A stretch of 34,762 nucleotides of DNA, taken from contig JBGFRN010000300.1 of NCBI GenBank assembly GCA_041695105.1, positions 1-34,762 of the forward strand. Direction: 5' to 3'. This DNA is from Bacillota bacterium. Its GTDB lineage: Bacteria > Bacillota > Sulfobacillia > JAMDAP01 > JAJYMS01. A program made the position numbers and the translations under genes. The stretch's first letter is position 1. Each line of letters opens with the position of its first letter. This document shows, piece by piece, positions 3,238 to 28,363 of this stretch. The notes below the pieces were generated by a model that made no database searches, was not told where the DNA came from, and saw only the letters and a program-made list of their open reading frames with translations.

Positions 3238-3948
3238 ATGGAAGAGGTAGGAGTCGCCGTTGCTTTCGCCGCGGGCTTGGCGTCGTTTTTGTCCCCTTGC
3301 GTCCTGCCCCTGGTTCCGACCTACCTGAGCTACCTGACCGGGGCCTCGCTCGACGCCTTGACCTCCCGCGACATCTCGGGCCTGCGCGCCAGGGTCCTGG
3401 CCAATTCGGGGGCCTTCATCCTGGGCTTCAGCCTGCTGTTCATGGCCTTTGGTGCCGGTGCCAGCGCCGTCGGGGGCTTTTTGCAGCAGCACGCCGATAC
3501 TGTTCGCCGGGTCAGCGCCGTCCTGATTATCTTCATGGGGCTTAACCTGATGGGCGTAATTAAGCTCGGCTTCATGCAGCAGGAGCGACGGTTCGACCTT
3601 GGAAGCGGCCGGGGCGGCAGCCCGGGACGATCGTTTCTGCTCGGGATGGCCTTCAGCGCCGGCTGGTCGCCCTGTATCGGCCCGATCCTGGCCTCGATCC
3701 TCGCCCTGGCGGGCACCTCCGGCGGGCTTGGCCGCGGGGTTCTGTTGCTGGCCGTTTATTCGCTGGGGCTAGCCATACCTTTTTTCCTGGCGGCTTTATC
3801 GATCACCGGATTCCAATCCCTGTTCCACCGCTTCCGAACTTACCTGGGCTACGTTAACCTGGCTAGCGGGCTGTTGATGGTCGCGGTCGGGCTGCTGATG
3901 TACTTCAATTATTTCGTCCGGCTCTCGAGCTACGTGATCTGGGGCTGA
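3238..3948 (+). CDS. ccdA: cytochrome c biogenesis thiol-disulfide transporter CcdA (DsbD-beta family)
   Basis: 236 aa, polytopic. Two conserved Cys-containing motifs: FLSPCVLPLVPTYLSYL and SAGWSPCIGPILASIL. Confidence 0.85.
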   Translation: MEEVGVAVAFAAGLASFLSPCVLPLVPTYLSYLTGASLDALTSRDISGLRARVLANSGAFILGFSLLFMAFGAGASAVGGFLQQHADTVRRVSAVLIIFMGLNLMGVIKLGFMQQERRFDLGSGRGGSPGRSFLLGMAFSAGWSPCIGPILASILALAGTSGGLGRGVLLLAVYSLGLAIPFFLAALSITGFQSLFHRFRTYLGYVNLASGLLMVAVGLLMYFNYFVRLSSYVIWG

Positions 3949-3975
3949 GCCGGGAGACCGGCAACCCCATGCGAG

Positions 3976-4536
3976 GTGGTGTTTTGGTTGCCAAACACGA
4001 GACGCTTGATCTCCATTGTGGCGGTTTTAATTTTGGCTCTGATGTTGGCCTGGGCGGTTTATCAGGACCTGTTTCCCGGAGCCGGCCGCCCGACCGAGGA
4101 GCGCCCGGCTGTCGGCTTTCTGGCTCCCGATTTTGCCGGGATCGACGTGGCCACCGGCCGGACGGTCAAACTGGCCGATCTGAAGGGCAAGCCGGTCTTG
4201 CTCAACTTCTGGGCTACCTGGTGCCCACCCTGCCGTGAAGAAATGCCGGATCTGGACCAACTCAGCCGCGACTTTAAGGATAAGGCCTACGTCATCGCCC
4301 TGGGGGCCGATCCGGGTGAGCCGGCTGAGCTCCTGGCCGGCTACGCCAAACAGAATAATCTGGCCGGCCTGACCATTCTTCGGGACGCCACCGGTTCGGC
4401 CGCCCGTCGCTTCCAGGTGCGGGCGATACCGACCAGCTTTTTCATTGACGCCCAAGGGGTCATCCGAGACTACAAGCTCGGGGCCATGAGTTACCAAACC
4501 ATGGTTGAAGGTCTAAAGAGAGCCGGGGCCAAATAG
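3976..4536 (+). CDS. membrane-anchored thioredoxin-fold thiol-disulfide oxidoreductase (TlpA/ResA/CcmG family)
   Basis: N-terminal TM anchor. KPVLLNFWATWCPPCREEMPDL carries the WCxxC active site typical of ResA/CcmG. Adjacent to ccdA. Confidence 0.85.
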   Translation: MVFWLPNTRRLISIVAVLILALMLAWAVYQDLFPGAGRPTEERPAVGFLAPDFAGIDVATGRTVKLADLKGKPVLLNFWATWCPPCREEMPDLDQLSRDFKDKAYVIALGADPGEPAELLAGYAKQNNLAGLTILRDATGSAARRFQVRAIPTSFFIDAQGVIRDYKLGAMSYQTMVEGLKRAGAK

Positions 4537-7816: not shown

Positions 7817-8836
7817 ATGAAGATAAAAATTTTGGCTCTCCTGATGGCTATGATTCTTGGTCTCGGATCGGTGACGGCCGCCGCGCCGGCCAAAGAGACC
7901 CTGGTTTTTGAAGTCATGGATGTACAGATCATGCCGGAGTATGACCTGGACTATCCTCAGGTTCTGGTTATTCTCCAGGGGGCCCTGATTAACAAAGGGA
8001 CCGAGCCCTGGACCGGCGAGATCACCTTTCGGGCTCCGAAGAACGCTGACATTCGCTCGGCCTGTGAGCTGAGCGCTGATCCGCTCAAGAACCCGAACGC
8101 CGTCCACACCAATATGGTGACCCTGGGCAGGGCCAAGATCACCGAGAAGGGCGATTACAAGGAGATCACTTATACCACCGACAAGGTGATCGAGCCCGGC
8201 AAGGCCTATCCCTACCATATGGAATGGTACTACCCCGCCATCACCGGCGGTCCTGACAAGAAGGTCAACTTCAACCTTCCGGTTCCGTTCGGGGCCGACA
8301 AGGTCACCGTAGAAGTTGTCATTCCGGCCCGCGCCTCAAACTTCAAATCCAACCTCCAGGCCGCCCAATCGGGCGACGGAGGGAACGGCACCAAGATCTA
8401 CCGTTACGAGCTTCCGGCCATGAAGGCCGATCAGCCCCTGGCCCTGGATTTCTCGTATACCAAGGCCGATAATAACAAAACGGTGGCCTCTTCCAGCATG
8501 TCCCGGCCCAATGCCAGCTCCGACCTCAGCCTGGCCGGCAATCAGACTGTCCTTTGGGTGGCCCTGGGCATGGTCATCTTGCTCGGATTCTTCATTTTCT
8601 ATGGCGGCTCATCCAAAAAGGCCAGCGTGAGCTCCAAGCCCAATAAGGTTCAGGCTAAGGCTCAGAAACCGGCCCCGCCGGCCCCGCCGGTACCGGCCAA
8701 GGGCAAGGCCAACGCCGCCAACCTGGCCCGGGTCGAAGAAGAAAAAAAGAAGGCCCGCAAGCTGCTTCTGGATGGCAAGATCAGCGAGGAAACCTACCGG
8801 GAGATTGTTCGCGATTTGGATAACGGGAACCGGTAA
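7817..8836 (+). CDS. secreted beta-rich ectodomain protein with C-terminal TM anchor and cytoplasmic SHOCT-like tail (module copy 1)
   Basis: Signal peptide MKIKILALLMAMILGLGSVTAAAPA. About 200-aa ectodomain, Ser-rich linker, TM (VLWVALGMVILLGFFIFYGG), Lys/Pro/Ala-rich stretch, and tail LLLDGKISEETYREIVRDLD (SHOCT-like). Distant paralog of 12271..13317. Confidence 0.6.
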   Translation: MKIKILALLMAMILGLGSVTAAAPAKETLVFEVMDVQIMPEYDLDYPQVLVILQGALINKGTEPWTGEITFRAPKNADIRSACELSADPLKNPNAVHTNMVTLGRAKITEKGDYKEITYTTDKVIEPGKAYPYHMEWYYPAITGGPDKKVNFNLPVPFGADKVTVEVVIPARASNFKSNLQAAQSGDGGNGTKIYRYELPAMKADQPLALDFSYTKADNNKTVASSSMSRPNASSDLSLAGNQTVLWVALGMVILLGFFIFYGGSSKKASVSSKPNKVQAKAQKPAPPAPPVPAKGKANAANLARVEEEKKKARKLLLDGKISEETYREIVRDLDNGNR

Positions 8837-8867
8837 ATATCTGGTCCCGTTAAAGGGGGAAAATCCG

Positions 8868-9287
8868 GTGAAAAAACAGACCAAGGTCTTTGTCGGGGTC
8901 GGGATTATTCTGGCAGCCATCGGCTTTCTGATGTTTTCCGCCTTCTCCGGCAATCAGATGTATTTCTTCACCGTTGACGAAGTATTGGCCAAGTCCAAGA
9001 CCCAGAACCTGACGGGCAAGCCGATCCGGATTCAGGGTGCCATCGTTCAAGAGTCGGTTGAATTCGACATTCGGAAGCCACTACTTAAGTTTAGGATCAA
9101 GGGCGAATCGGGCGAGACCGTTTTGGTTGAGTACGCCGGGGTTAGGCCCGATAACATGACCGAGGCCACTTCGGCCATCGTCGAGGGCAAGCTAAACACT
9201 CAGGGCACACTGATTGCCAGCAAGGTGATGATGCAGTGTCCCACTAAGTACGAAGCCGAAGACGGGAAGAAGGGATCAAGCCAATGA
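8868..9287 (+). CDS. ccmE: heme chaperone CcmE, Cys-type (CxxxY) variant
   Basis: GTG 8868 preceded by AAAGGGGGA. N-terminal TM, OB-fold-like body (IRIQGAIV...), C-terminal QCPTKYEAE where canonical CcmE has HxxxY. Stop overlaps the ccmF start. The track start at 8772 overlaps the upstream gene and is rejected. Confidence 0.8.
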   Translation: MKKQTKVFVGVGIILAAIGFLMFSAFSGNQMYFFTVDEVLAKSKTQNLTGKPIRIQGAIVQESVEFDIRKPLLKFRIKGESGETVLVEYAGVRPDNMTEATSAIVEGKLNTQGTLIASKVMMQCPTKYEAEDGKKGSSQ

Positions 9288-11254
9288 ACCAAGTCGGTTC
9301 TATATTGATGACGATTGGGTTTTTCATCAACCTCTGGACTATAGCCGCCTACATCTATGGGCTTCGCAATCAGAACCAGCGATATCTCGACAGCGCCAGG
9401 GGCGGGGTCGGAGCCATGGCCCTGCTGGTGACCGTCTGCATCTCCATCCTCTGGGTTCTCTTCATGACCGATAATTTCTCAAACAATTATGTCGCCGGCC
9501 ATTCTTCCAGCGACCTATCCCCGGGCTACAAGTTCTCGGCGCTCTGGGCCGGCAACGAAGGCTCGCTGATGCTGTGGGTCTGGGTGCTTTTGGTTTACAA
9601 CTGGATAGTCGTTTACTTCCCCGACCCAAAAGGGGAGGAAATGATCCCCTACGTCGGAGCCGTGATGTCGGCCGTCGCCCTATTCTTTATGTTTATCCTT
9701 AACTTTGTGAGCCTGCCCTTCGCCGAGCTCAGCCCGGCCCCGGCTGAGGGGATGGGCCTCAACCCGCTGCTCCAAGATCCCGGAATGATTATTCACCCGC
9801 CAACCCTCTACCTGGGCTACGTCGGGTTCACTGTACCGTTCGCCTTCGCGATAACCGCGCTGCTCACCCGCAAGGTCGGCGATACCTGGATCAAGCTGAC
9901 CCGGCGCTGGACGCTGACGGCCTGGCTTTTCCTATCGGTCGGCATTATTTTCGGCGCTCAGTGGGCCTACACCGTCTTGGGTTGGGGCGGCTACTGGGCC
10001 TGGGATCCGGTCGAGAACGCCTCACTGCTGCCCTGGTTGACTGGAACCGCCTTCTTGCACTCGGTCATGATCCAGGAACGCCGCGGGATGCTCAAGGTCT
10101 GGAACGTGATGCTGATCATCATTACCTTCCTGCTGACTGTCTTTGGGACCTTCCTCACTCGCTCCGGGGTCATCGCCTCGGTTCACGCCTTCTCTGACAC
10201 CAAGCTTGGCGCCTGGTTCATGATCTTTATGGGGATGACCCTGGCGGCTTCACTGTATCTGGCCTTCGACCGGATGCACCTGCTCAAGGAGGAAAACCAG
10301 TTCGAGGCGATTATCTCGAAGGAATCAAGCTTCTTGCTCAACAACTTGCTCTTCGTCGGCTCGGCCTTCGCCGTTTTCTGGGGGACGATCTTCCCCCTGA
10401 TCTCCGAGGCCGTTCGCGGGGTCAAGGTGACTGTCGGACCGCCTTTTTATAACCAGGTCAACGTGCCGATCGGCCTGGCGCTGATCCTTCTGATGGGGCT
10501 CTGCCCGCTCATCCCCTGGCGCAAGGCCACAGCCCGGCATTTGATGACCAACTTCCTTTATCCGGCTATCGCCGGCGTCGCGTTCGCAGTGATCGCCTTC
10601 GCCCTCGGGATGCGCAGCGTTGTCGCCTTGATCGGTTTCACCATCTGTGTTTTTGTAATTGCAACCATCGTCCTTGAGTTCTACCGGGGGGTCAACGCCC
10701 GGCGAAAGATGACCGATGAGCCAGTCCTGGAGGCTTTCTGGCACCTGGTGATGCGTAACCGCCGGCGCTTCGGGGGCTATCTGATCCACATGTCTATGGT
10801 CCTGATGGTAATCGGGTTCACCGGCGAGGGCGTCTATAAGCAGGAAAAGATCTATACGGTTACTCCTGGACAAGTAATGGCTATCGGCGACTATAACCTG
10901 AAGTACAACGGCTTGGCCGGGGATGTTCGGGGCCGGACCGAGATCGTCTACGCCGACCTCGAGGTCTCACAATACGGACGGCCCCTTCCTGGAGCCCTCC
11001 GTGCCAGCAAGGAGTTCCACCCGAACTCCGAACAGCCGACTACCGTGGTCGGCGTCAAGGGCGGCCTGAAAGAGGACCTTTTTGTTATCCTTAACGGCTG
11101 GGAAAAGGACATGACCGCCAACTTCAAGATCTACGTCAACCCACTGGTGGCTTGGATCTGGCTGGGCGAGTACCTGATGGTCGCCGCCACGATCTTTGCC
11201 ATCTGGCCGGAACGCCGCCGTCTCGGCTACGGAGTCTCCCTGACCGGCGACTGA
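9284..11254 (+). CDS. ccmF: cytochrome c heme lyase subunit CcmF
   Basis: 656 aa, polytopic. WWD-family motif WAYTVLGWGGYWAWDPVENASLLPWL. Confidence 0.9.
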   Translation: MNQVGSILMTIGFFINLWTIAAYIYGLRNQNQRYLDSARGGVGAMALLVTVCISILWVLFMTDNFSNNYVAGHSSSDLSPGYKFSALWAGNEGSLMLWVWVLLVYNWIVVYFPDPKGEEMIPYVGAVMSAVALFFMFILNFVSLPFAELSPAPAEGMGLNPLLQDPGMIIHPPTLYLGYVGFTVPFAFAITALLTRKVGDTWIKLTRRWTLTAWLFLSVGIIFGAQWAYTVLGWGGYWAWDPVENASLLPWLTGTAFLHSVMIQERRGMLKVWNVMLIIITFLLTVFGTFLTRSGVIASVHAFSDTKLGAWFMIFMGMTLAASLYLAFDRMHLLKEENQFEAIISKESSFLLNNLLFVGSAFAVFWGTIFPLISEAVRGVKVTVGPPFYNQVNVPIGLALILLMGLCPLIPWRKATARHLMTNFLYPAIAGVAFAVIAFALGMRSVVALIGFTICVFVIATIVLEFYRGVNARRKMTDEPVLEAFWHLVMRNRRRFGGYLIHMSMVLMVIGFTGEGVYKQEKIYTVTPGQVMAIGDYNLKYNGLAGDVRGRTEIVYADLEVSQYGRPLPGALRASKEFHPNSEQPTTVVGVKGGLKEDLFVILNGWEKDMTANFKIYVNPLVAWIWLGEYLMVAATIFAIWPERRRLGYGVSLTGD

Positions 11255-11284
11255 CGGTCTGGTCGAAAGAGAGGGCTATCTAAA

Positions 11285-11794
11285 ATGAGATTTACCGGAA
11301 GAATGCTACCGTTGCTTTTAATGGCGGCCGCCCTTTTGGCGTGGGCCCCGGCCGTGGCTTCGGCCCAGGTGATGAAGCCTCCGGTCGAGATCAACCGCCC
11401 GACCCGGGCGGTGGAGCAGCAGTTAATCTGCCAGTGCGGCTGCACTATGGTCGTAGACGTCTGTGACTGCGGCACGGCCGAGAACACCCGCAAGGACATC
11501 CTGGCCAAGATGAATTCGGGCATGTCGAATCAGCAGATTCTGGCCGCTTTTATGGCTCAGTACGGTGAAAAGGTCCTGGCCTATCCTGAGAAGAAGGGCT
11601 TTAACTGGGCGGCCTGGATTACCCCCTTCGCTGCCATTATCGCTGGTGCCACCCTTCTATATTTCATCTTGCGTAATTGGGTCCGATCCTCCCGGCGCTC
11701 CGAGGCCGCCGCCCCACAGGCGGGCCGCCTGAGCGAGGAGGAGGGCAAAATCTATGACAGCAAGCTTCAGGACGTGTTAAAGAAGCACTTCTAG
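11285..11794 (+). CDS. ccmH: cytochrome c biogenesis protein CcmH/NrfF family, atypical Cys pattern
   Basis: Signal peptide and a C-terminal TM. Family-like segment SNQQILAAFMAQYGEKVLAYPEKKGFNWAAWITPF. The redox motif region reads LICQCGCTMVVDVCDC instead of LRCxxC. Confidence 0.75.
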   Translation: MRFTGRMLPLLLMAAALLAWAPAVASAQVMKPPVEINRPTRAVEQQLICQCGCTMVVDVCDCGTAENTRKDILAKMNSGMSNQQILAAFMAQYGEKVLAYPEKKGFNWAAWITPFAAIIAGATLLYFILRNWVRSSRRSEAAAPQAGRLSEEEGKIYDSKLQDVLKKHF

Positions 11795-11803
11795 CGAGAG
11801 GTC

Positions 11804-12274
11804 GTGACCGTAGTGACCATAGCCGTTGTCATAATCGGCGTCTTTACCGGTTTGGCCGCCATCCTTCTGATTGGTCTCCCGCTGCTTCGGGCCCAAAGCG
11901 ATGAGATGCGGGAAGTCGAACTTGATGAGGTCGAGCTTGAAGAGATTGAGCGTGAGAAGGTTTTCGCCGCTCTCTCCGACATTGAGTACGACTATCGGAT
12001 GAATAAACTTTCTGAGGAGGACTACCAGGAACTAAAGGCCCGCCTGGCCAAGAAGGCGGTTGAGTTCATCAAAGAAGAAGAAGAGGCCGAGGCCACGACC
12101 GGGCCCAATCTTGAGGATGAGATCGAGGCCGAGGTGGCCGCCGAACTCGGCAAGCCCGATCCCGAACCTTCCGGCCCGGCCGCCAAAGCCGGCGGATACT
12201 GTCTTCACTGCGGGGCCAAACTGGCCAATAGCGATCAGCGTTTCTGTCAATCATGCGGGGGTAAGCTGGCATGA
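11804..12274 (+). CDS. N-terminally TM-anchored acidic coiled-coil protein with C-terminal zinc-ribbon
   Basis: GTG start after GAGAGG. TM (VVIIGVFTGLAAILLIGLPLL), E/D-rich helix, CLHCGAKLANSDQRFCQSCGGK. Stop overlaps the next start (ATGA at 12271). Confidence 0.55.
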   Translation: MTVVTIAVVIIGVFTGLAAILLIGLPLLRAQSDEMREVELDEVELEEIEREKVFAALSDIEYDYRMNKLSEEDYQELKARLAKKAVEFIKEEEEAEATTGPNLEDEIEAEVAAELGKPDPEPSGPAAKAGGYCLHCGAKLANSDQRFCQSCGGKLA

Positions 12275-13317
12275 TTAATAAATGGCTGGCCGGGCTGGTA
12301 GCCTTGTCGCTGGCCCTGTCTGTAGCCGGCAGCGCCCTGGCCGCCCAGGCGGCGACCGGGGTATCATCCGAATTTACCCACCTGTTGTTCGGAGTCAAAG
12401 ACGGGCAGCTCAAGGTCTTCCATCTGGTGAAGCTCAAAAACCAAGGGGCGTCTAGTTCCGGTCCAATCGAACTATCGCTTCCCAAGGGGTACCAAAACCC
12501 GGCCTTTTCGGGCGATGCCGGTGGGGCGATGGCCAAAGAGGTTCAGCTTGGATCGGAGGGCCTAAAGGATCCCCGGGGTCTGGAGCCGGGCGCGGCCAGG
12601 GACTATGTGCTGACCTACGACCTGCCGATGCCGCCGGATGGTCAGAGCCTGCGGGTCAACGTCAACTACCCGACCCAGATGATCCTGATTCTGGCTGACC
12701 AGGCCACGGTTCAGATGGTTCCCCTGCAAAACCGGGACTTCAGCTCTCAGGGTTCCGTCCAATACGGGCAAAAAACCTTTGAACAGTTTGCCCGGAACGA
12801 TGTTGCTCCCGGTACTACCCTGACCATGACCCTCGGACCGGCCACACCCGGGGGCGCACAGCCCGGCGGGGCCGGACAACCCGGCGGCGGGATGGCCCAC
12901 GAGCCTCCACCCGGAACCGTGACCAAAGGCACGATTGCCCTGCTCAACCAGGCCTTCCACGGCGGGGCTTCAAATATGATGATGTGGCAGCGCTTTACCG
13001 GCACCACCGGGCACGGTGGACTGGTCGGGAGCATCATCATTCTGGCCGGGCTGACCGTCCTGATCTTCGGCCTGGGCCGGACTTTCTATGTTCGCTGGCA
13101 GCTCAAGCAGGGGATCAACCCCGAGACCGGTGAACGGCCCGAGGAGACGTTCGAAAAGCTCCTCAAGGAAAAAAGCATTTATATTAAGAAAATCGCCGAC
13201 CTTGACCGTAAGGCCGAGGCCGGAGAGATCACCTCCGAAGAGCATCAGGAGCGCCGCTCGGCCTATAAGCGCCGTCTGGTCAAGGTTCTGGCCCGGCTGA
13301 AGGAGGTGGAGAATTGA
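12271..13317 (+). CDS. secreted beta-rich ectodomain protein with C-terminal TM anchor and SHOCT-like tail (module copy 2)
   Basis: Signal peptide (LVALSLALSVAGSALAAQA), ectodomain, Gly/Pro-rich linker, TM (LVGSIIILAGLTVLIFGLG), tail EAGEITSEEHQERRSAYKRRL. By eye it aligns with 7817..8836: LLFGVKDGQLKVFHLVKLKNQG vs LVFEVMDVQ..VLVILQGALINKG, and LEPGAARDYVLTYDLP vs IEPGKAYPYHMEWYYP. Its stop overlaps the ccmA start. Confidence 0.6.
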   Translation: MINKWLAGLVALSLALSVAGSALAAQAATGVSSEFTHLLFGVKDGQLKVFHLVKLKNQGASSSGPIELSLPKGYQNPAFSGDAGGAMAKEVQLGSEGLKDPRGLEPGAARDYVLTYDLPMPPDGQSLRVNVNYPTQMILILADQATVQMVPLQNRDFSSQGSVQYGQKTFEQFARNDVAPGTTLTMTLGPATPGGAQPGGAGQPGGGMAHEPPPGTVTKGTIALLNQAFHGGASNMMMWQRFTGTTGHGGLVGSIIILAGLTVLIFGLGRTFYVRWQLKQGINPETGERPEETFEKLLKEKSIYIKKIADLDRKAEAGEITSEEHQERRSAYKRRLVKVLARLKEVEN

Positions 13318-14015
13318 CTGTCCTTTTGGCCCGCGGCCTCGAAAAGAGAATCGGAACCAAATACGTCCTGTCGGGCTTCGATCTGGAGCTGCGGCAGGGG
13401 CGGTTCCTGACCATCTTCGGACCGAACGGGGCTGGCAAGTCCACCTTCCTCAGGGTGGCCGCCGGCCTCATTTCACCTTCGGCCGGCGAGCTGCAACTGA
13501 TGGGCCAAAGGCCAGCCGAGGGTGAGGGCGGCTATCGCAAGGGCTTGGGTTTTCTATCACACGGATCGTTTTTGTACGATAACCTGACGGCGGCAGAGAA
13601 CCTGGCTTTTTACGCCAAGATCTATGGAGTAAGAGATTCGGGGGCTATCATTCCCCGGCTGCTCAACGAGATCGGTCTAAGCCTTTTCGCCAACGATACC
13701 GTCCGGGGGTTTTCCCGGGGGATGATCCAGCGCTTGGCTATTGCCCGGGCGATTATCCACGACCCGGAGATCCTCTTTCTCGACGAGCCCTATACCGGCC
13801 TTGATCAGAGGGCGACCGCCATTTTGGACGGGGTACTCAGGCGTTTCAAACGCGCTGGAAAAACAGTGGTCATGGTCTCGCATAACTTTGCCGAGGGGCT
13901 GGCCCCGGCCGACGAGGTGGCGGTAATCGCCCGCGGGCGGGTGGTCGTTCACCGGGAAAAGGGGGAGCTCACCCCCGAGACCTGGAGCCGGGAATACCAC
14001 CGGGCGGTTGAGTAG
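13314..14015 (+). CDS. ccmA: heme exporter ABC ATPase CcmA
   Basis: Walker A GPNGAGKST, signature-like FSRGMIQRLAIARA, Walker B ILFLDEP. Followed by ccmB and ccmC. Confidence 0.85.
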   Translation: MTVLLARGLEKRIGTKYVLSGFDLELRQGRFLTIFGPNGAGKSTFLRVAAGLISPSAGELQLMGQRPAEGEGGYRKGLGFLSHGSFLYDNLTAAENLAFYAKIYGVRDSGAIIPRLLNEIGLSLFANDTVRGFSRGMIQRLAIARAIIHDPEILFLDEPYTGLDQRATAILDGVLRRFKRAGKTVVMVSHNFAEGLAPADEVAVIARGRVVVHREKGELTPETWSREYHRAVE

Positions 14016-14028
14016 CGGGGGTGTGTGA

Positions 14029-14721
14029 TTGGGCGACTACCTGCGCGTAGTGCTGGCCATAGCCGGAAAAGACCTGCGGGCCGAGAGACGGAGCAAGGAA
14101 ATGCTCTCGGCGATGCTGATTTTTTCCTTGCTGGTGGCGGTGATTTTTTCATTTGCCTTTAACATCGAATCGGGCATTTTGCGTGAAACCTTCCCAGGCG
14201 TGGTCTGGGTGGCCTTCTTCTTCGCCGGAACCCTTGGGCTGAACCGGTCTTTCGTTGGTGAGCGCATGAACGCCGCCATTCACGGCCTGATGCTGGCTCC
14301 GGTCGAGCGGAGCGCCATCTATTTCGGCAAGGTTCTGAGCAACCTGGCCATCATGTTTTTGACTCAGTTGGTTGGTTTGCCAATTTTTTTGATCTTCTTT
14401 GACGCCACGGTCGGCGGCTCATGGGCCTACCTGCTGCTCTCGCTGGTGGCATCCACCTTTGGATTCGTCGCCGTCGGCACCTTTTTGGCCGCTTTGTCGG
14501 CCAACACCAGGACCAGCGAGATCCTCCTTCCGATCATCCTCTTTCCGGTGGTGGTCCCAGTCGTCCTTGGCGCGGTTCAGACTACGGCCGGGGCGATGGC
14601 CGACCCGAACACCCTGGCCGACCCGACGGGGTACCTTAACTGGTTCAAAGTATTGCTGGTCTACGATCTTGTTTTTCTGATCGTTCCGTTCCTGCTCTTT
14701 GATTACGTCCTGGAGGTGTGA
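14029..14721 (+). CDS. ccmB: heme exporter membrane protein CcmB
   Basis: 230 aa, six hydrophobic segments. VVWVAFFFAGTLGLNRSFVGER resembles the conserved CcmB loop. Positioned between ccmA and ccmC. Confidence 0.85.
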   Translation: MGDYLRVVLAIAGKDLRAERRSKEMLSAMLIFSLLVAVIFSFAFNIESGILRETFPGVVWVAFFFAGTLGLNRSFVGERMNAAIHGLMLAPVERSAIYFGKVLSNLAIMFLTQLVGLPIFLIFFDATVGGSWAYLLLSLVASTFGFVAVGTFLAALSANTRTSEILLPIILFPVVVPVVLGAVQTTAGAMADPNTLADPTGYLNWFKVLLVYDLVFLIVPFLLFDYVLEV

Positions 14722-14722
14722 A

Positions 14723-15400
14723 ATGACCCCCGAACGCCACAGGGTATTGGGCTATACCACTTTCATCATGGTGACCCTGGGCCTGATCTGGGCCTTCCTG
14801 GTCTCGCCGACCGAAAAGGTGATGGGTGACGTCCAGCGGATCTTTTACTTTCACGTTGCCTCGGCCTGGAATGCCTTTCTGGCCTTCTTCGTCGTCTTCA
14901 TCGCCAGCATCCTTTACCTCAAAACGCGCGACAGGCGCTGGGATCTGTTGGGATACTGTTCGGCCGAGGTCGGGGTGCTCTTCACCACTATCGTCCTGCT
15001 CACCGGGCCGATCTGGGCCAAACCGATTTGGCTAACCTGGTGGACCTGGGATCCCCGGCTGACGACGACCCTGGTCCTTTGGTTCATCTACCTGGCTTAC
15101 CTGGTTATCCGCTCCACGGCCGAGGGCAGCGAGGCTCAGGCCCGCCTGGCGGCTATCTTCGGAATTATCGGCTTTTTGGATGTCCCCCTCGTCTTCGTTT
15201 CGGCCCGCTGGTGGCGCTCGATTCACCCGGTGCTGATCGACAAGGACAAGATGAACATGGAGCCGCCGATGGTGGTGGCCATGATCCTGGCCGTCTTGTC
15301 GTTCACCCTGCTCTATGCCTATTTAACCTCGGCCAGGATGCGCGTCGAGCGCTTGGCCCAGGAGGCCCAGGAACTTAAAGAAGCCCTCAGGTCGCGCTGA
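14723..15400 (+). CDS. ccmC: heme exporter/heme-handling protein CcmC
   Basis: WWD motif PIWLTWWTWDPRLTTTL. ATG 14723 lies 2 nt after the ccmB stop and follows GGAGG. The track start at 14699 overlaps ccmB. Confidence 0.9.
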   Translation: MTPERHRVLGYTTFIMVTLGLIWAFLVSPTEKVMGDVQRIFYFHVASAWNAFLAFFVVFIASILYLKTRDRRWDLLGYCSAEVGVLFTTIVLLTGPIWAKPIWLTWWTWDPRLTTTLVLWFIYLAYLVIRSTAEGSEAQARLAAIFGIIGFLDVPLVFVSARWWRSIHPVLIDKDKMNMEPPMVVAMILAVLSFTLLYAYLTSARMRVERLAQEAQELKEALRSR

Positions 15401-22192: not shown

Positions 22193-22216
22193 AGCCTATA
22201 AACTTCAGAGTAGAAA

Positions 22217-22254
22217 AAACGGGGCTGACTCAAAAGCATTTGAGTTAGCCCCGT
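22217..22254. terminator. bidirectional intrinsic terminator between convergent mdh and the - strand protease gene
   Basis: AAAAAACGGGGCTGACTCAAA-AGCA-TTTGAGTTAGCCCCGTTGCTTGTTT. 17-bp stem (one G:U) flanked by an A-run and a T-rich run. Confidence 0.7.
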
Positions 22255-22266
22255 TGCTTGTTTAGA

Positions 22267-23901
22267 TTACCCGCTGACCGCCAAAACGTTGACTGTATAG
22301 TCCACCTTATACTTTCCAGCCTTAGGAGTGCTGACATCAAGCTGGTAAAGTCCGGGGCCGTTTAGGAGGGGGAAGTAAAGCTGTAATGGCTGCCCCGCCT
22401 TGGCCGGCCGGCCAAAAATCGCAATCTGGTGGTCTGCCTGCCTCAACTCCAGCCGGGTCAGCTCGTCGGACGGTGTGATCTCGATGGCCAAATAGGTTGA
22501 ATTCAACACCGCGTAAGCATCTCCGTTCACTCTCACCGTGACCGGAGCTTCCCGGACAGCCGTCAGCGGCTGGCGTGGCACCCGGGACCAGAGTTCCTCG
22601 AAAAGAACCTTCAGGGCTTCGGTCTGCCCTGGATACTCCCTGGGGTCGCCGTGAACCGTCCTTTGCTTGACCTTGGCCGTCCACCATTCGCCCAGGACGA
22701 TCCGAACATCCTCGGCCATCGAGTCAAGAACCGAGTCTTGTCGCAGGCCATAAACGTCCTCTGTTACGCTGAACGGCGCGATCCCTTTGATCGCCCCGTA
22801 CCGGTTCCAGAAGGCAGGATCGTCATTATAACCGGCCGAGTACCGCTGCTGCAGGTGGTGGCCGAACTCATGAGCCATAGTGGTCAGCAGCGCCTCGTAG
22901 ACGGCCACGTGATCGCCGTCCGGAGCGTGGCCGATCAGAGTTCGGTAAGCTTTGGTCGTTCCTGCGACGCGGCCGTTTTTATCCATGAACTCATTGGGAA
23001 TCAAATAAACCTCGAGGCCGCTAACCGCCTGGTCGGGAACCGCGATTTCGTCGAGAGCCCGGTGAATTGGGGGATGGTGCGGGTCATGCTGGAATTTCCG
23101 GGGTTCCAGGCGCAACCCGCCCTCGACCAGGAAGTCCGGGTACTTCAGTTCAGGTGTTGTATGCCCAGGTTTATAGCGGGTCAGCAAGCCGGCCCGGGCT
23201 GCCGCGGCCAGTTCGAGCGCTCTCAGCTTGAGGGCGGTCTCCTTCATGTAGACGGAATAGCCTCGGATCGGGTGCCTTCCTTCACGTCCCTTGATGTCCT
23301 TGATGGCCACCAGCAGGTGTCCCAACTCTTCACTAATCGATTGTATTTTTTCCGGGTTGGTTGACAGGCTGGCCCGAAGTTCCTCCAGGTGCCTGAGGTC
23401 GGTCTGGTGCCAGGCAAGGTAATCTTTCTCTGGGAGTCGCAGAGTAGATCCGAAGACAAGAGGGTATCTGGCATTTATTTCAACCGTCCGGGTTTCAGCG
23501 TTCCAATAAACCGAGGCATTCAGGCTCTCGGCCACAAACCTGACCGGTACCATGGTTCGTCCGGCGATAATCTGGGACGGGACGTCGAGTTTATGAGGAA
23601 CTCCGTTTATCCACGCAGTCCTGAGACCAACCGGCAGCTCGATGGTTGTTTTCCCCTGGGTGGCAACTACCGTGCGACTTTCGGATTCCCAGGACACTTC
23701 AGCCCCCAAGGCGCTGAAAATGACCCGGAGCGGAACTAAGGTCCGGCCTTGATCTATGATCGGTAAGACATCGAATACTAACTTCCGGCCGTTCACGGTA
23801 ACATTAATCAGCGGGTCAAAGGCTTGGACTGGCCGGGCAAGCAAGAGTGAGATCAATAGCGTCAAGCAGTACGTTCGGCGTAAGATTATCCTAAATCTCA
23901 T
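22267..23901 (-). CDS. secreted putative zinc metallopeptidase with N-terminal copper-amine-oxidase-N (stalk) domain
   Basis: Signal peptide (LLISLLLARPVQA). Duplicated VNG..L..D..P.I..GRT(L/M)VP(L/V)R motif typical of the Cu_amine_oxidN1 domain. HEXXH motif TMAHEFGHHLQQ. C-terminal beta-rich domain. Confidence 0.7.
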   Translation of the reverse strand: MRFRIILRRTYCLTLLISLLLARPVQAFDPLINVTVNGRKLVFDVLPIIDQGRTLVPLRVIFSALGAEVSWESESRTVVATQGKTTIELPVGLRTAWINGVPHKLDVPSQIIAGRTMVPVRFVAESLNASVYWNAETRTVEINARYPLVFGSTLRLPEKDYLAWHQTDLRHLEELRASLSTNPEKIQSISEELGHLLVAIKDIKGREGRHPIRGYSVYMKETALKLRALELAAAARAGLLTRYKPGHTTPELKYPDFLVEGGLRLEPRKFQHDPHHPPIHRALDEIAVPDQAVSGLEVYLIPNEFMDKNGRVAGTTKAYRTLIGHAPDGDHVAVYEALLTTMAHEFGHHLQQRYSAGYNDDPAFWNRYGAIKGIAPFSVTEDVYGLRQDSVLDSMAEDVRIVLGEWWTAKVKQRTVHGDPREYPGQTEALKVLFEELWSRVPRQPLTAVREAPVTVRVNGDAYAVLNSTYLAIEITPSDELTRLELRQADHQIAIFGRPAKAGQPLQLYFPLLNGPGLYQLDVSTPKAGKYKVDYTVNVLAVSG

Positions 23902-23971: not shown

Positions 23972-24010
23972 CATTAAAATCCATCGGGGAAGGACGAGGT
24001 AATACCTTCG

Positions 24011-27000
24011 GTGGCAGGCAGTTCAAAAAAATCTTTCGCTTGGTTACTGATTCTAGTTTTAGTTTTTTTCGGATTCTTTGGGCTAAAGGTTCTGGCCGAC
24101 CAGACCGGCGACAAGTTCGGGAGCAGCGCCACTGGTACTGTTTCAGGCGGCGCCGCCAGCGATGCCCTGACTTTGAACAACGCCGGACCGAGCCTGGACT
24201 GGGACAAGAACGATTGGGTAAAGGTCCAGGGTTTCAGCAGCAGCGGTGTTTCGGGGACCATCAACTTTGTCAGGGTCAAAGTTACCGTGAGAACCGACTC
24301 CACCGACCCGCGGGGCGACTGGGTCTTGCGTTATACCTATAACAACACGGATAACTTTACCACGGCCGGACAGGGATATACCGCCTTTGATTGGCACCGG
24401 ACCCTGTCGACTAGTTTTGTTACCGAAACGGTTGATCTAACCACCAGGGACGGCAGCGCCAGGTGGACGACGACCGATATTGACAATCTTCGCTTTCGTA
24501 TGGATACCAGACGCTCGGCCTCGGGAGCTAGCGGTCAATTTATTATACCCGACGCCATTTACATCCTGGTTGACTACACTCCCCCCGACACCACGCCGCC
24601 GACCGACCCGTCCAACCTCCGGTCAACGGGGAAGGGCGGGAGCTACATCGATCTGGCCTGGGACGCCTCCAGCGACTCCGGGAGCGGGGTGGCCGGCTAT
24701 CAGGTTTACCGGAACGATGTAGCCGTGGCTTGGGTGGCCGCACCAACCACGACCTACCGCGACAGCGGGCTGGCCGAGTTTACGACATACAGCTACAAGG
24801 TTTCGGCCAAGGACAATGCCGGCAACTGGTCGACCGGATACGCCGGGCCGATCTCGGAACAAACCCTGGACACGACCGCCCCGAGCGCCGTCAGTTCGGT
24901 GACGATCACGGCCTATAGCGCCTATCGTTTGAGGGAACTCGACATCACCTGGCTTCCGTCGTCGGACCCGAGTCCGGGCAGCGGGGTTTCGCATTACCAA
25001 ATTTTTGACGCTGGTACCAACGTTTTATTGCAGACCTACACTCATAGCGGCTCGGTCAGCAGCTTTACCTATCGGACGAGCGGATTGGGCTACTTGCCCA
25101 ACCAGACGCGCACCTATTATTTCAAGACGTTTGACAACAGCGGCAACAGCTCGACCAGCGGCAACTTTTCCGGAACGACCGACCCGGACACCCTGGCTCC
25201 AACCCCGGTCAACACCCTGACGGCGGTGGCTGAAAGCAGCAGCAGGATCCGGCTTGACTGGGACCCGGTGACCGACGACTGGGGCGTCTCACACTATATG
25301 GTCTACCGCAACACCGTCTACCTGCGCCGGATCGACTCAACTGGCGCCACCCATTATCAGATTTTCGACACCGGTCTGAACGCGGACACATCTTACTCTT
25401 ATTATGTCCAGCCGGTAGACATTTACAGCAACGTTCAGACTTCGGGCAATAACACCGCCAGCGCCACGACCTTCCCCGTCGACACTACGCCGCCGAGCAA
25501 GCCAGGCAACCTGACGGCCAGCGCGGTCGGCACCTCGGAGATTGATCTGAGCTGGACAGCCTCGACCGATAACGTCGGGGTGGTCGGCTATTACATCTAC
25601 CGGAGCGTCAGCGGGGGAACCTATTCTTACCGGGCGACCGCCGCCGGAACCAGCTATACCGATACCGGATTAACCCATAACACGCTATATGGCTATTACG
25701 TTAGAGCCTATGACGAGGCCGGGAATATTTCCGATCCGAGCGACACGGCTTCGGCCACAACCAAGACGGACACCACCCCGCCGTCGGTCGTGTCGACCAG
25801 CCCTTCCGCCGGCGCCAATAACGTGGGGCGGGCCGTTTACCCCAGCGCTAATTTCAGCGAGGCGCTGGATGCCAACACGGTCAACTCGACCAATGTTGTT
25901 CTTAAAGATGTCTACGACAACACGGTCACCAGCGGCGTCTACCTGATCAATAACTCGACGGTGGAGATCAGACCTAACGCCAGGCTGGCGGCCAGCACCC
26001 TTCACACCGTTTATCTCAAAACCGGGATCAAGGATCTGGCCGGTTTATCGATGTCCTCAGAGTACTCCTGGAGTTTCACCACTGGCACGTCTGATTACTT
26101 TGTGCCCCACGGCAACTACGGGCAGACCCCGAACGCCTGCATCAATTGCCACTCGTCTCACTATGGTCAGAACGCCCGGATGATCCGGGCAGCCAACGTC
26201 TCGTCGGTCTGTTTTACCTGCCATAACGGGACCGGGGCCAAGGCCTTGAACGATATCGACAACCAGTTCAAGACCGGCACCAACACGGTCTTTCATCCGG
26301 TCAAGAACACTCAGGCCTCGGCCGGGGGAGCTTACACCGGGTTGATCGAGTGTGTCACGTGTCATAACCCGCACGGCGACGTAAATACGGTTACAGGTCA
26401 GGTTTACCCCAGGCTTCTAAAGCAAAAAAACGCGTCGGGCAACTACGTCTTCCAGGGTAATGCCTTCTGCTTGACCTGTCACGGCCCGACTGACCGGCAA
26501 TGGAGCGCGACTTATTACTCAAACACTGCTGGCGATCACAGTTCGGCCAGCACCAAGCATTACGATTTGAACGAGGCGGATCTGGTTCCGCCGTCGGGAA
26601 CACAGATCACCTGCGTCATGTGTCATAACAAGCACGCCAGCCCATACCGCCGGCTCGGCCTGGCTCTTGAGGAGAACCTTTGCTTTAACTGCCATAATAA
26701 GGTGGCCAATTCAATCGACGGCAACCGCAATATTCAGGATGAGTTTAACCGGACCGGTTCCAAGCACGACATCGGCGCCAATGGGTCCGGAGGCATCCGG
26801 GTCGAGTGTTACAACTGCCACAATACTCATTTGGTTACCAACGTCAGGGTTTCGGCCAAGCAGTCGGTCTCAGACGTGACCAATCCCGACAATACCAAAC
26901 AGTACTTCACGGATACCGTCAGCGGAAAGATCACCGGCTTCTGCCTCAAGTGTCACGATGGGTCGCCGCCGGTGGCGGTGGTTAATTCAACCACTTTGGT

Positions 27001-28249
27001 GCCTTATACGGTGACTTTCCCCAATGTCTCTTTTACTAACAATCTCGGGGGTTGGGACAAGTCGTTGTTTACCGACTCTGGTCATCATGTCAACTCTACA
27101 GTCTACGTCGACTGTGGCAGTTGTCACGAGCCGCACGGGTCAAACTACGACCGGCTCCGTTTAAGGGATGAGGATACCGCCACCACCAACGGGATCTGCC
27201 TCACCTGCCACGCCGGGCAATACGCCAATAGTGTCGCGCCCAACGTCAAGACTGACCTGACCAAGGCCTACCGGCACCCGACACTTTACATCGCGGGTGT
27301 CCACACCGACACCGAAAACCACAACTTCAACACGGCAACGAACCGGCACGCCGAGTGCTATGACTGCCACGATATGCACGCCGCCAAGCAGGGTGGGGCC
27401 GTCGCCGCTTCAGGGAACACCCCTCCCAAGGCTTCAAACATCCTCAGGAACGTTTACGGGATCAGCGTGACGACCGACCCGAACGTTCGGACCGTTGCCA
27501 GTATGGGCTACAAGCCCGCCTCGATGGCATATAATTCTTCGGGGTATTCAGTGACTTCGGTGGTCTATATGTTCAACCTGTGCTACAAGTGTCACTCTAG
27601 CTACAGCTTCGGCAACACCCCGCCAACGACCCCGAACCCCCCATATACCGACATCGCCGCCGAATTCAACCCTAATAACGAGTCGTACCATCCGATCGAG
27701 GCCAAGGGGAAAGCCTGGTCAAGCATCCCTAATACTAGCTTTACCGGGACCGACAGCTTCGGCACCGCCATTACCAGGGATACGATCCTGTTCTGCACCG
27801 ACTGCCATGGTAGCAATAATTCGGGTGTGAAGGGCCCGCACGGTTCGGACAATCGCAGTATCTTGAAGAAACCGTGGACGACCACCACCGGCGGGAATAG
27901 CACCGACTTCTGCTTCAATTGCCACAATCCCGATGTTTACGGTCCCAACGCCACCGCTGGTTATACTTCGACCGGTTTCAACGACGCCGACACCCGGAGG
28001 GGCAACCTGCACAAGTACCACGGCGCGGACAAGGGATACCGGAATTGTCAGTACTGCCATGTCAGGATCGTTCATGGCTGGACCCGGCCGCACCTGATCG
28101 GGCACCAGGACGACCCATTTCCCTACATTGACAAGGATGGCAACGGTAACGCCACGGTTAACCGGATTACTTACTTCCCGCCTTATGTCGCTTCTGGCGG
28201 GTATAGGAGAGGCGGACCTTGGTGCTCAGTCTCTCACGGGCAGCACTAG
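24011..28249 (+). CDS. giant secreted FN3-repeat / Ig-like / 15-heme c-type cytochrome
   Basis: GTG start after GGGGAAGGACGAGG. Signal/anchor WLLILVLVFFGFFGLKVLA, then a Cys-free N-terminal beta domain of about 160 aa. Four FN3 repeats follow (e.g. IDLAWDASSDSGSGVAGYQVYRN, IDLSWTASTDNVGVVGYYIYRS) joined by TTPPS-type linkers. One SbsA/Big_5-like Ig domain (SPSAGANNVG...VVLKD). Then 15 CXXCH motifs between 26138 and 28060. Confidence 0.85.
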   Translation: MAGSSKKSFAWLLILVLVFFGFFGLKVLADQTGDKFGSSATGTVSGGAASDALTLNNAGPSLDWDKNDWVKVQGFSSSGVSGTINFVRVKVTVRTDSTDPRGDWVLRYTYNNTDNFTTAGQGYTAFDWHRTLSTSFVTETVDLTTRDGSARWTTTDIDNLRFRMDTRRSASGASGQFIIPDAIYILVDYTPPDTTPPTDPSNLRSTGKGGSYIDLAWDASSDSGSGVAGYQVYRNDVAVAWVAAPTTTYRDSGLAEFTTYSYKVSAKDNAGNWSTGYAGPISEQTLDTTAPSAVSSVTITAYSAYRLRELDITWLPSSDPSPGSGVSHYQIFDAGTNVLLQTYTHSGSVSSFTYRTSGLGYLPNQTRTYYFKTFDNSGNSSTSGNFSGTTDPDTLAPTPVNTLTAVAESSSRIRLDWDPVTDDWGVSHYMVYRNTVYLRRIDSTGATHYQIFDTGLNADTSYSYYVQPVDIYSNVQTSGNNTASATTFPVDTTPPSKPGNLTASAVGTSEIDLSWTASTDNVGVVGYYIYRSVSGGTYSYRATAAGTSYTDTGLTHNTLYGYYVRAYDEAGNISDPSDTASATTKTDTTPPSVVSTSPSAGANNVGRAVYPSANFSEALDANTVNSTNVVLKDVYDNTVTSGVYLINNSTVEIRPNARLAASTLHTVYLKTGIKDLAGLSMSSEYSWSFTTGTSDYFVPHGNYGQTPNACINCHSSHYGQNARMIRAANVSSVCFTCHNGTGAKALNDIDNQFKTGTNTVFHPVKNTQASAGGAYTGLIECVTCHNPHGDVNTVTGQVYPRLLKQKNASGNYVFQGNAFCLTCHGPTDRQWSATYYSNTAGDHSSASTKHYDLNEADLVPPSGTQITCVMCHNKHASPYRRLGLALEENLCFNCHNKVANSIDGNRNIQDEFNRTGSKHDIGANGSGGIRVECYNCHNTHLVTNVRVSAKQSVSDVTNPDNTKQYFTDTVSGKITGFCLKCHDGSPPVAVVNSTTLVPYTVTFPNVSFTNNLGGWDKSLFTDSGHHVNSTVYVDCGSCHEPHGSNYDRLRLRDEDTATTNGICLTCHAGQYANSVAPNVKTDLTKAYRHPTLYIAGVHTDTENHNFNTATNRHAECYDCHDMHAAKQGGAVAASGNTPPKASNILRNVYGISVTTDPNVRTVASMGYKPASMAYNSSGYSVTSVVYMFNLCYKCHSSYSFGNTPPTTPNPPYTDIAAEFNPNNESYHPIEAKGKAWSSIPNTSFTGTDSFGTAITRDTILFCTDCHGSNNSGVKGPHGSDNRSILKKPWTTTTGGNSTDFCFNCHNPDVYGPNATAGYTSTGFNDADTRRGNLHKYHGADKGYRNCQYCHVRIVHGWTRPHLIGHQDDPFPYIDKDGNGNATVNRITYFPPYVASGGYRRGGPWCSVSHGQH

Positions 28250-28334
28250 AGGCCCTCGACGGTAAACACCTGGGCCAACAACTGGGAAGGAATAAACCTT
28301 TCGACTGCAGAAACAAACCTCACACTGCTGCAAA

Positions 28335-28363
28335 GGGCCGGAGGTCACCGGCCCTTAGTTTTT
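28335..28363 (+). terminator. intrinsic terminator after the multiheme cytochrome gene
   Basis: GGGCCGG-AGGTCA-CCGGCCC followed by TTAGTTTTT. Confidence 0.6.

Follow-up and report, generated by a model that had tools for sequence, protein, structure and literature searches.

Introduction

Electron transfer across the thick wall of monoderm bacteria is understood from a handful of proteins, which comprise OcwA (6I5B), a surface multihaem cytochrome of Thermincola potens (PMC6703420), OmhA (6QVM), an S-layer-associated undecahaem cytochrome of the Gram-positive iron reducer Carboxydothermus ferrireducens (PMC9250108, PMC7829351), and CwcA, whose part has been modelled. The wall-crossing model for Thermincola invokes ImdcA, PdcA, CwcA and OcwA and a wall of 20-80 nm, and CwcA, an OmcS-like hexahaem protein, is proposed in it to stack through the peptidoglycan (PMC7911101). 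Cytochromes at the surface of Gram-positive iron reducers form an established field (PMC6703420, PMC7829351, PMC7911101), and genes that fuse multihaem with fibronectin type III (fn3) modules are expressed in iron-reducing soil communities (PMC6199725). Here, we describe a gene of the latter kind from a Bacillota bacterium (assembly GCA_041695105.1, contig JBGFRN010000300.1; by the window we mean the whole stretch of 34,762 nucleotides that was analysed), whose product sets a conserved domain with 15 CXXCH motifs behind a stalk of immunoglobulin-like (Ig-like) domains. On balance we lean, if not strongly, towards seeing in it a Sec-exported and Ccm-matured extracytoplasmic multihaem cytochrome, the tethered haem chain of which would pass electrons to extracellular acceptors.

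Results

Fifteen CXXCH motifs, starting at 26138, 26210, 26351, 26468, 26612, 26681, 26807, 26942, 27113, 27197, 27356, 27581, 27794, 27911 and 28046, make up the predicted haem-binding sites of the cytochrome. Such a number is far above chance because 2000 residue shuffles contained 0.02 CXXCH on average and 2 at most. Thirty of the 31 Cys residues sit within the motifs, the other being C1405, and the first of them all is residue 710. In motifs 1, 3, 5, 7, 9 and 11 the site is extended to CxxCHxxH, in exact alternation with plain CxxCH through motif 12, and aligning the units with each other gives seven pairs of the form C..CH..H-x3-R(L/V)...C..CH plus one final single motif. Pfam recognises this build as Paired_CXXCH_1 (PF09699; 111.1 bits over five stretches, cut-off 20.6) and NCBIfam as TIGR01905 (82.5 bits, threshold 25.2). 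A motif scan of the cytochrome revealed no CXXCK or other atypical, catalytic-type haem motif. In the C-terminal four-haem region the CXXCH sites are widely spaced, and non-haem motifs (FNPNN.SYH, GPHGS) are conserved there. A first-pass annotation had placed all 15 motifs at exactly these positions and had seen both the Cys-free N-terminal half and the alternation over motifs 1-11 correctly; its paired unit stands as well, the count of about six iterations having to give way to seven pairs and a single.

Searching with the haem domain (aa, amino acids, 696-1412) returned 705 proteins, more than 25 of which align over 93-100% of its length at 37-45% identity and with E values down to 8e-159, the best homologue sharing 45%. 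Across an alignment of 44 sequences (the cytochrome and 43 others) all 15 CXXCH motifs are invariant, so that unconserved haem motifs, a refuting case named in the earlier reading, are not what is seen, and the same invariance holds for 14 His outside the motifs (including all six in the 'xxH' position), with five more being near-invariant. At least 19 candidate distal His are thus available for 15 haems, which means every haem could have a distal His, and as judged from the alignment these invariant His and the absence of an atypical motif would seem to fit electron transfer over catalysis. Defining the family as a domain of ~700 aa that aligns full-length and has 15 CXXCH and 14 invariant His, we find the cytochrome by coverage, motifs and His to belong to an uncharacterised 15-haem family of Bacillota. 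Most close family proteins have 15 CXXCH and some have 16-17; where taxa are named they are Bacillota, i.e. metagenome-assembled genomes (MAGs) and few cultured species, among them Desulfitobacteriaceae, Thermodesulfitimonas autotrophica (P0027), Carboxydocellales and Desulfitobacterium metallireducens, the homologue of which is shorter and has 13 haems. Databases label family members merely as 'cytochrome c3 family protein'. Matches to just part of the domain, in shorter proteins with 8-11 haems, come from other phyla (among them Actinomycetota, Chloroflexota, Gammaproteobacteria and Eisenbacteria). Within this family the cytochrome keeps some distance from its relatives: it forms a singleton cluster at both 90% and 50% clustering, its top relative among GTDB genomes shares 43% identity, and the Joint Genome Institute (JGI) metagenomes gave a single distant match at 22%. 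The features of the gene and its product are as follows.

23992..23999, +, Shine-Dalgarno-like GGACGAGG, 11 nt 5' of the GTG (direct sequence reading)
24011..28249, +, complete open reading frame (ORF) of 1412 aa with a GTG start
24011..24097, +, Sec-type signal peptide, aa 1-29 (Kyte-Doolittle scan, motif inspection)
24098..24586, +, orphan all-beta domain, aa 30-192, a candidate binding or tether module
24587..24880, +, fn3 domain 1, aa 193-290, opening with a DTTPPT linker (Pfam, NCBIfam, self-alignment)
24881..25198, +, fn3 domain 2, aa 291-396 (self-alignment, linker positions)
25199..25489, +, fn3 domain 3, aa 397-493 (self-alignment, linker positions)
25490..25759, +, fn3 domain 4, aa 494-583 (best Pfam fn3 stretch, 496-579)
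25769..26083, +, Big_5 Ig-like domain, aa 587-691, directly ahead of the haem domain (Pfam PF13205)
26096..28246, +, conserved 15-haem domain, aa 696-1412, ~717 aa (motifs, Pfam, family alignment)
28223..28237, +, C-terminal C1405-S-V-S-H1409, a lone Cys in a near-invariant family column
28333..28356, +, terminator-like GC-rich hairpin, then a T run, 84 nt past the stop codon

The column of C1405 reads C-x5-CH in stalk-less relatives (e.g. CSTVPGCH) and C-x3-CH in one other member (P0014); in the subgroup with fn3 stalks, to which the cytochrome belongs, the second Cys of the site is replaced (C-x-x-[ST]-H). The site may bind a 16th haem in an unconventional way or form a disulfide.

The frame of 1412 codons at 24011-28249, as annotated at first pass, starts with GTG and is the longest ORF of the window. 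Inspection of the sequence near the GTG found no alternative in-frame start, and the Shine-Dalgarno-like element is located in an AT-rich divergent intergenic region of 110 bp. Given the hairpin and T run after the stop codon, the gene appears to be monocistronic. The mature protein would have a mass of ~149 kDa, or ~158.5 kDa with 15 haems on board, and combines an acidic stalk (isoelectric point 4.6) with a near-neutral haem domain (7.9). Since its third-position GC content (GC3, 0.73) falls inside the range of the neighbouring genes (0.67-0.82) and its overall GC also matches theirs, composition gives no hint that the gene was transferred recently, and we rejected recent horizontal acquisition on the basis of this native-looking composition. 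A tandem duplication of the fn3 units at the DNA level was likewise rejected, with zero tandem repeats detected.

Export, too, had been proposed earlier, and at the level of sequence the proposal is well founded: the only hydrophobic segment of the cytochrome by Kyte-Doolittle scan (aa 5-32) coincides with an N-terminal signal made up of a KK n-region, a hydrophobic core of 17 residues and a predicted V-L-A|D cleavage site. Tat export was considered and rejected because the signal lacks a twin-arginine motif; that TatC is encoded in the window is a coincidence.

Between signal and haem domain, four fn3 repeats (PF00041, 62.6 bits over three stretches, threshold 25) with 36-43% mutual identity in self-alignments of the inter-linker segments are followed by a Big_5 domain that covers its Pfam model in full (1-105/105; 79 bits, threshold 23.6). 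Five linkers of the type D-T-T-(P/A)-P-(S/T), beginning at residues 193, 287, 393, 491 and 587, mark each domain boundary. The first-pass description of a beta domain, four fn3 domains and an Ig-like domain joined by TTPPS-type linkers is therefore accurate, as the linkers fall at the domain boundaries, and Paired_CXXCH_1, fn3 and Big_5, the families for which it suggested a search, all score above their Pfam cut-offs. Among NCBIfam models the fn3 repeats match best to the fn3 linkers of the exoglucanase CbhB (E 3e-82), far under the cut-off of that family. Being without Cys the stalk carries no haem and cannot conduct, so a 'wire' would be confined to the C-terminal domain; the stalk can only be a redox-inert tether or spacer outside any wire, and the notion that it threads haems through the envelope is not supported.

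The N-terminal domain is harder to place. Residues 30-192 have no match in Pfam or NCBIfam, and residues 28-200 neither a sequence match in the PDB nor a homologue by word-index search (zero found); BLAST of the domain against P0005 aligned linkers alone. When 1.84 billion representatives were searched exhaustively with phmmer, the hits were the protein itself plus weak or spurious matches (including a repetitive junk protein, P0242), of which a single one is interpretable (phmmer E 1.4e-4, BLAST 5e-6). It is to a thrice-repeated 'W..TDI.N..FR..TR' module from a protein whose C-terminus is dockerin-like in look. A single-sequence AlphaFold2 (AF2) model of the domain contains beta strands only, at an unusable mean predicted local distance difference test (pLDDT) of 36. 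The domain might anchor the protein in the wall or S-layer or, as its tip, bind a substrate.

How far the stalk is shared is a separate matter, and here the expectation that homologues would conserve the fn3 stalk did not survive the family alignment: among the 43 other members Big_5 occurs in 10 and fn3 in 7, and ~13 members lack an extension, having just 21-69 residues ahead of the first haem motif with the signal peptide fused straight to ..AQA|YENPHG. In ~20 members that distance is 96-190 residues and in several 222-454; it is 709 in the cytochrome itself and ~1,000 in two relatives (L001, L008). The junction of Big_5 and haem domain recurs in several relatives, for example in L001 (Bacillota MAG, 1699 aa), where at least seven fn3 domains are followed by Big_5 and this by the haem core, and in P0001 (12 cluster members) with three fn3 domains and Big_5. 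P0259 (Thermincolia MAG, 1455 aa), which aligns with our protein across 1276 residues at 35% identity, interleaves two unassigned, probably beta-rich stretches with fn3-like domains, and the stalk of L008 (Thermincola ferriacetica MAG, 1754 aa) consists of seven Big_1/invasin domains. The same haem core is thus found behind 0 to ~10 Ig-like domains (fn3, Big_5, Big_1/invasin), and variation in their number and type is the expected behaviour of a spacer module.

For the haem domain, AF2 supplied with the family alignment produced a model of moderate confidence with mainly coil and short helices (pLDDT 75.5, predicted template-modelling score 0.75). Foldseek against the PDB gave one match, to MtrA (6R2Q chain A, E 0.04, TM-score 0.46, target-normalised). 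Using the haem domain as a single sequence, a PDB search found no match, and MtrA, OmhA and OmcS were reached by the family profile alone. The profile aligned with four successive paired units of MtrA (E 5.8e-15), with residues 376-665, in the C-terminal module, of OmhA (6QVM, E 1.5e-9), with an unnamed multihaem protein (9YUQ, E 1.3e-7), with short motif-rich stretches of OmcS (E 1.7e-7) and OmcE (E 1.1e-6), and with NrfA (E about 1e-4).

Genomic context

The window contains genes for TatC, CcdA, a ResA-like thioredoxin, FeoB and CcmE/F/H/A/B/C; for a histidine kinase, a sigma-54 activator, an HMGL-like synthase, isocitrate dehydrogenase and malate dehydrogenase (MDH); and for a divergent Cu_amine_oxidN1 protein, the cytochrome, a major facilitator superfamily transporter and a membrane-anchored YVTN-type beta-propeller. 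Those that bear on maturation are given here.

3238..4536, +, CcdA/DsbD-type thiol transporter and ResA-like thioredoxin, which would keep the CXXCH Cys of apocytochromes reduced
7817-8836, orf339, an unknown gene paralogous to orf348, overlapping the CcmE start
8772..15400, +, System I genes CcmE, CcmF, CcmH, CcmA, CcmB and CcmC for haem attachment, with two zinc-ribbon genes and orf348 in between
12271-13317, orf348, gene for an unknown membrane protein, interspersed in the ccm run

With CcmABCEFH, CcdA and thioredoxin all present, the window does hold the maturation capacity that was ascribed to it. That this System I operon is dedicated to the cytochrome, as was also claimed, is not tenable. 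The ccm genes stop 8.6 kb 5' of the cytochrome, from which they are separated by a two-component system, three genes of tricarboxylic acid cycle type and one divergent gene; the order from ccm to MDH is shared with a relative whose CcmF is 85% identical, and this type of CcmF is widespread in Bacillota (Carboxydothermus, Calderihabitans, Limnochorda, Metallumcola). On account of this distance, synteny and commonness, the operon is general haem-attachment machinery.

Its regulation may be of interest in its own right. A near-consensus sigma-54 promoter, TGGCATGAATTTTGCT (6743-6758, +, 1 mismatch), lies 14 nt 5' of orf185, which heads the gene run into ccmE-F-H-A-B-C, and a histidine kinase and a sigma-54-dependent response regulator are encoded directly 3' of ccmC (15606-18070), so cytochrome c maturation may be under sigma-54 two-component control. 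Over the window as a whole sigma-54 matches show no excess over chance (16 observed, 13.2 expected). A sigma-54 promoter was also searched for before the cytochrome gene and none was found, the sole good match being that ahead of the ccm operon. Two similar gene pairs, each for a small zinc-ribbon and a ~340-aa protein, lie 5' of ccmE (7333-8836) and in the gap between ccmH and ccmA (11804-13317). Their ~340-aa products have a signal peptide, an extracytoplasmic domain, a C-terminal transmembrane helix and a charged coiled tail and no match in Pfam; the relative conserves proteins of about this size (347 and 343 aa) in one of its loci (L081), and the pairs may be accessory System I factors in Bacillota. 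The listed CcmE ORF (8772-9287, 171 aa) and the gene before it overlap by 65 nt, and with the relative's CcmE measuring 158 aa, the true start probably is a codon further downstream.

In four Logan contigs of that relative with the 85% identical CcmF (L081-L084), the order ccm, histidine kinase, response regulator, HMGL, isocitrate dehydrogenase, MDH is kept and the contigs end at or before MDH, L083 reaching ~160 bp past it. These ends correspond to 22192-22267 of the window, the onset of the Cu_amine_oxidN1 gene and the cytochrome, and the cytochrome locus may be one at which insertions vary between strains or at which assemblies break. The Cu_amine_oxidN1 gene (22267-23901, -) is transcribed divergently from the cytochrome gene, the 110-bp promoter region being common to both, and encodes a secreted protein of 544 aa with Cu_amine_oxidN1 at its N-terminus and a zinc-metalloprotease-like HEFGH motif towards the C-terminus. 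Two genes 3' of the cytochrome is the membrane-anchored beta-propeller of YVTN/cytochrome-d1 type (29788-31179, +), which is non-homologous to the NHL propellers of the L008 locus and has tblastn matches in L040 and L051 only. It is followed by an unusual fusion of an FtsA/PilM/MreB-like actin-fold ATPase with a C-terminal ThiS/MoaD-like ubiquitin-fold segment (31110-33473, +, 787 aa); the TTG start of this ORF overlaps the propeller gene by 70 nt, and the true start is probably later. Close to the contig end, a match to group II intron domains D1-D4 (34294-34465, +, RF02001, 57 bits, E 4e-9) probably explains why the contig stops there.

Apart from the cytochrome gene, no ORF of the window contains even one CXXCH. 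Related loci look different in this respect: 58 of 80 have another cytochrome with at least four haems within 10 kb, as do 10 of the 12 closest, in which the partners typically are hexahaem cytochromes. The one locus annotated with Pfam (L008) encodes two hexahaem cytochromes together with NHL-repeat and TPR proteins, and multihaem/NHL/TPR clusters have been discussed as electron-transfer loci in the Gram-positive iron reducer Dethiobacter (PMC10376724). The family context therefore supports a role in electron transfer, with our copy being 'solo'. Such clusters, and the presence of a homologue in a Thermincola ferriacetica MAG, also speak for the role in extracellular electron transfer that the first-pass annotation had drawn from Thermincola; the stalk-centred mechanism it attached to this role is not supported. 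Particularly cytochrome-rich loci were seen in a MAG labelled Thermaerobacter marianensis (L009), where seven ORFs with 6-15 CXXCH are packed into 17 kb (762-17447), and in L010, where a 1921-aa 14-haem protein with FG-GAP repeats sits beside an 18-haem protein (10386-16151 and 17712-19910).

Discussion

Based on the above, we infer that the cytochrome most likely is a tethered MtrA-like conduit or terminal reductase of a presumed monoderm envelope. Sec would export the apoprotein, CcdA and thioredoxin would hold the CXXCH cysteines reduced, and Ccm would attach haem. The C-terminal ~717 aa would then be the working part, with 15 c-type haems that are probably mostly bis-His-ligated. As its paired units are of MtrA type and include the His of CxxCHxxH, the haems can be expected to be arranged in a continuous chain, each such His possibly ligating a neighbouring haem so that electrons may hop from one to the next. 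Electrons would enter the chain from envelope cytochromes encoded elsewhere in the genome and leave it, assuming outward flow, towards extracellular acceptors such as minerals, electrodes, humics or partner cells. The six beta-sandwich domains, ~20-30 nm long if extended (an estimate that allows 3-4 nm per typical domain), would hold or position the haem domain in or beyond the envelope. In line with this scheme, the relatives reached by profile (MtrA, OmhA, OmcS, OmcE) are all cytochromes of extracellular electron transfer, which appears to support it at the level of sequence similarity. As for which end would be proximal to the cell, a signal predicted to be cleavable and a layout like that of proteins with a carbohydrate-binding module favour a released or tip-binding arrangement, and the invasin-type stalk of L008 speaks for anchoring at the N-terminus and outward projection of the haem domain. 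In invasin and intimin, such domains hold the functional C-terminal domain at a distance from the anchored N-terminus.

Several observations weigh against this proposal. The similarity to MtrA, OmhA and OmcS owes largely to the haem motifs, and the DmsE/MtrA model TIGR03508 scores 67.0 bits against a cut-off of 192.2. Motif and hydrophobicity scans of the cytochrome found neither an LPXTG-like motif nor a C-terminal hydrophobic segment, and a Pfam scan no SLH, LysM or CWB domain by which it might be tethered. The 34.7-kb window encodes no partner cytochrome, quinol dehydrogenase or NHL protein. OcwA and OmhA, moreover, have penta-coordinated haems and in-vitro reductase activities, including with nitrite (PMC9250108), and the literature searched included no experimental study of any family member.

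A different reading is a substrate-targeting or adhesin layout, in which the protein is released once its signal peptide is cleaved, its N-terminal domain binds an insoluble target (a mineral surface, a polymer of the matrix or a partner cell), the fn3 domains act as flexible linker and the haem module shuttles or delivers electrons there, the stalk then having nothing to do with wall crossing. The combination resembles clostridial extracellular enzymes (binding module, fn3 linkers, catalytic domain); the V-L-A|D site is predicted to be cleaved and no membrane or wall anchor is present; the fn3 repeats find their best match in the linkers of CbhB, albeit under the family cut-off; and the sole resemblance of the N-terminal domain is to a repeated module in a protein with a dockerin-like C-terminus. 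Homologues without a stalk indicate that the haem domain functions alone, and secreted multihaem cytochromes such as SmhA-C do occur in Gram-positive iron reducers (PMC7829351). However, the similarity of the N-terminal domain is weak and its binding function putative, an insulating linker of ~25 nm between the anchor point and the haems has no obvious advantage for delivery, and the spacers of L008 are invasin-type Big_1 domains. To our minds, such a targeting role is unlikely though it deserves attention. Less probable still, and in fact quite improbable, would be a redox enzyme or electron store that works outside the cytoplasm on soluble substrates (nitrite, sulfur oxyanions, metal chelates, shuttles) with one or more penta-coordinated catalytic haems as in NrfA, OcwA and OmhA. 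The weak profile matches to OmhA and NrfA, Cytochrom_C552 matches in two of the 44 family members and in the Thermincola ferriacetica MAG homologue, the widely spaced C-terminal four-haem region with its FNPNN.SYH and GPHGS motifs, and the nitrite reduction by OcwA and OmhA noted above may all be taken in its favour. Against it stand the lack of CXXCK or an atypical motif, invariant His that suffice for bis-His ligation at all 15 haems, NCBIfam models of NrfA, NrfB and NrfH for which the cytochrome scores far under cut-off, and a Foldseek search in which the haem domain matched none of NrfA, HAO and OTR. A catalytic side function, on the other hand, is conceivable by analogy with OcwA and OmhA.

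Electrons could also run the other way, that is be taken up from Fe(II) minerals, cathodes or a syntrophic partner by direct interspecies electron transfer. In principle a multihaem wire can conduct in both directions; homologues of MtrA (MtoA) function in the oxidation of Fe(II) and have been noted in the Gram-positive Dethiobacter (PMC10376724), and partial homologues were found in Gallionellaceae, Sulfurimicrobium, Thiobacillus and Nitrosomonadales MAGs. These proteobacterial matches, however, cover part of the domain at 26-32% identity, the full-length family centres on Bacillota with known iron reducers (Thermincola, Desulfitobacterium metallireducens, Carboxydocellales), and the window has no indicator of lithotrophy, which together render reverse flow very unlikely in our opinion. 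Hardly credible, finally, is the suspicion that the gene is an assembly chimera of an fn3 surface protein with a cytochrome, or a decaying pseudogene. One might be led to it by a MAG-type contig, a singleton cluster whose homologues share at most 45% identity and contigs of the closest relative that all stop just short of the cytochrome locus; yet the 4.2-kb frame is unbroken and equipped with ribosome-binding site and terminator, composition is uniform between stalk and haem part, the order fn3, Big_5, 15-haem core recurs independently in P0001, L001 and P0259, and all functional residues are intact.

Returning to the tethered conduit or terminal reductase, a bolder version may be envisaged in which the 15-haem core represents a new structural class of haem wire on a 'height-adjustable' mast, Bacillota lineages matching 0 to ~10 Ig-like spacers (fn3, Big_5 or Big_1) to the thickness of their envelope so that the terminal reductase comes to lie at its outer face, and the orphan module of our protein serving as a novel type of non-covalent anchor in wall or S-layer or as mineral-binding tip. 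We regard this extension as doubtful but worth spelling out. The family is sizeable, lies mainly in Bacillota, and combines a 15-haem core without a close solved structure with a modular redox-inert spacer. If the core turned out to be a surface terminal reductase, it would add a further type of component to Gram-positive extracellular electron transfer and offer a natural experiment that relates spacer length to envelope architecture, which matters for bioelectrochemical systems as well as for how iron is cycled in subsurface and thermal habitats; if it were a mere electron carrier of the wall zone, the finding would be ordinary.

Comparison with known systems

Of the structurally known cytochromes MtrA comes closest. 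Its paired unit, C..CH..H(G)...C..CH, is that of the cytochrome, and the paired-CXXCH build proposed at first pass is upheld, as one of MtrA type, by Pfam, by the alignment of the units and by the profile match to MtrA. Shared unit, profile and Foldseek match taken together suggest that the protein likely works as a linear haem chain. The two differ in size, MtrA having 10 haems in about 330 aa and our domain 15 haems in 717 aa plus fusion to an Ig-like stalk, and a scan of 28 window genes revealed no MtrB-like porin or outer-membrane cytochrome partner. Judging by sequence models, the protein thus is seemingly MtrA-like at the level of the unit and outside the DmsE/MtrA family.

OmhA and OcwA resemble it in coming from a similar type of organism, in being proposed surface terminal reductases and in doing without a covalent wall anchor (PMC7829351, PMC6703420, PMC9250108). 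Unlike it, they belong to an NrfA-like group, have 11 and 9 haems, respectively, two of which are penta-coordinated, and lack an Ig-like stalk; Foldseek matched our protein to neither, and the haem arrangement differs, too. With its weak profile matches it would seem to fall outside the OcwA/OmhA/NrfA group and also outside that of OmcS and OmcE. With respect to the Thermincola model, stacked haem proteins are what spans the wall there, whereas the long part of our protein is haem-free. The hexahaem proteins of the L008 locus, examined as possible relatives of OmcS or CwcA, had no PDB match.

Anaerobic methanotrophic (ANME) archaea reportedly have large multihaem cytochromes fused to S-layer domains, the modules of which differ from those described here. 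ANME cytochromes have been discussed elsewhere (PMC9012536). The same plan is seen in the multihaem/fn3 fusions of iron-reducing communities, which likewise join a haem module to a structural or adhesive surface module, though both the haem modules and the structural domains are different ones. Multihaem-fn3 fusions as such are therefore already known; what is new is a haem core that is conserved yet without a characterised or structurally solved member, here combined with an orphan module at the N-terminus, and the highly variable Ig-like spacer on which this 15-haem core is mounted.

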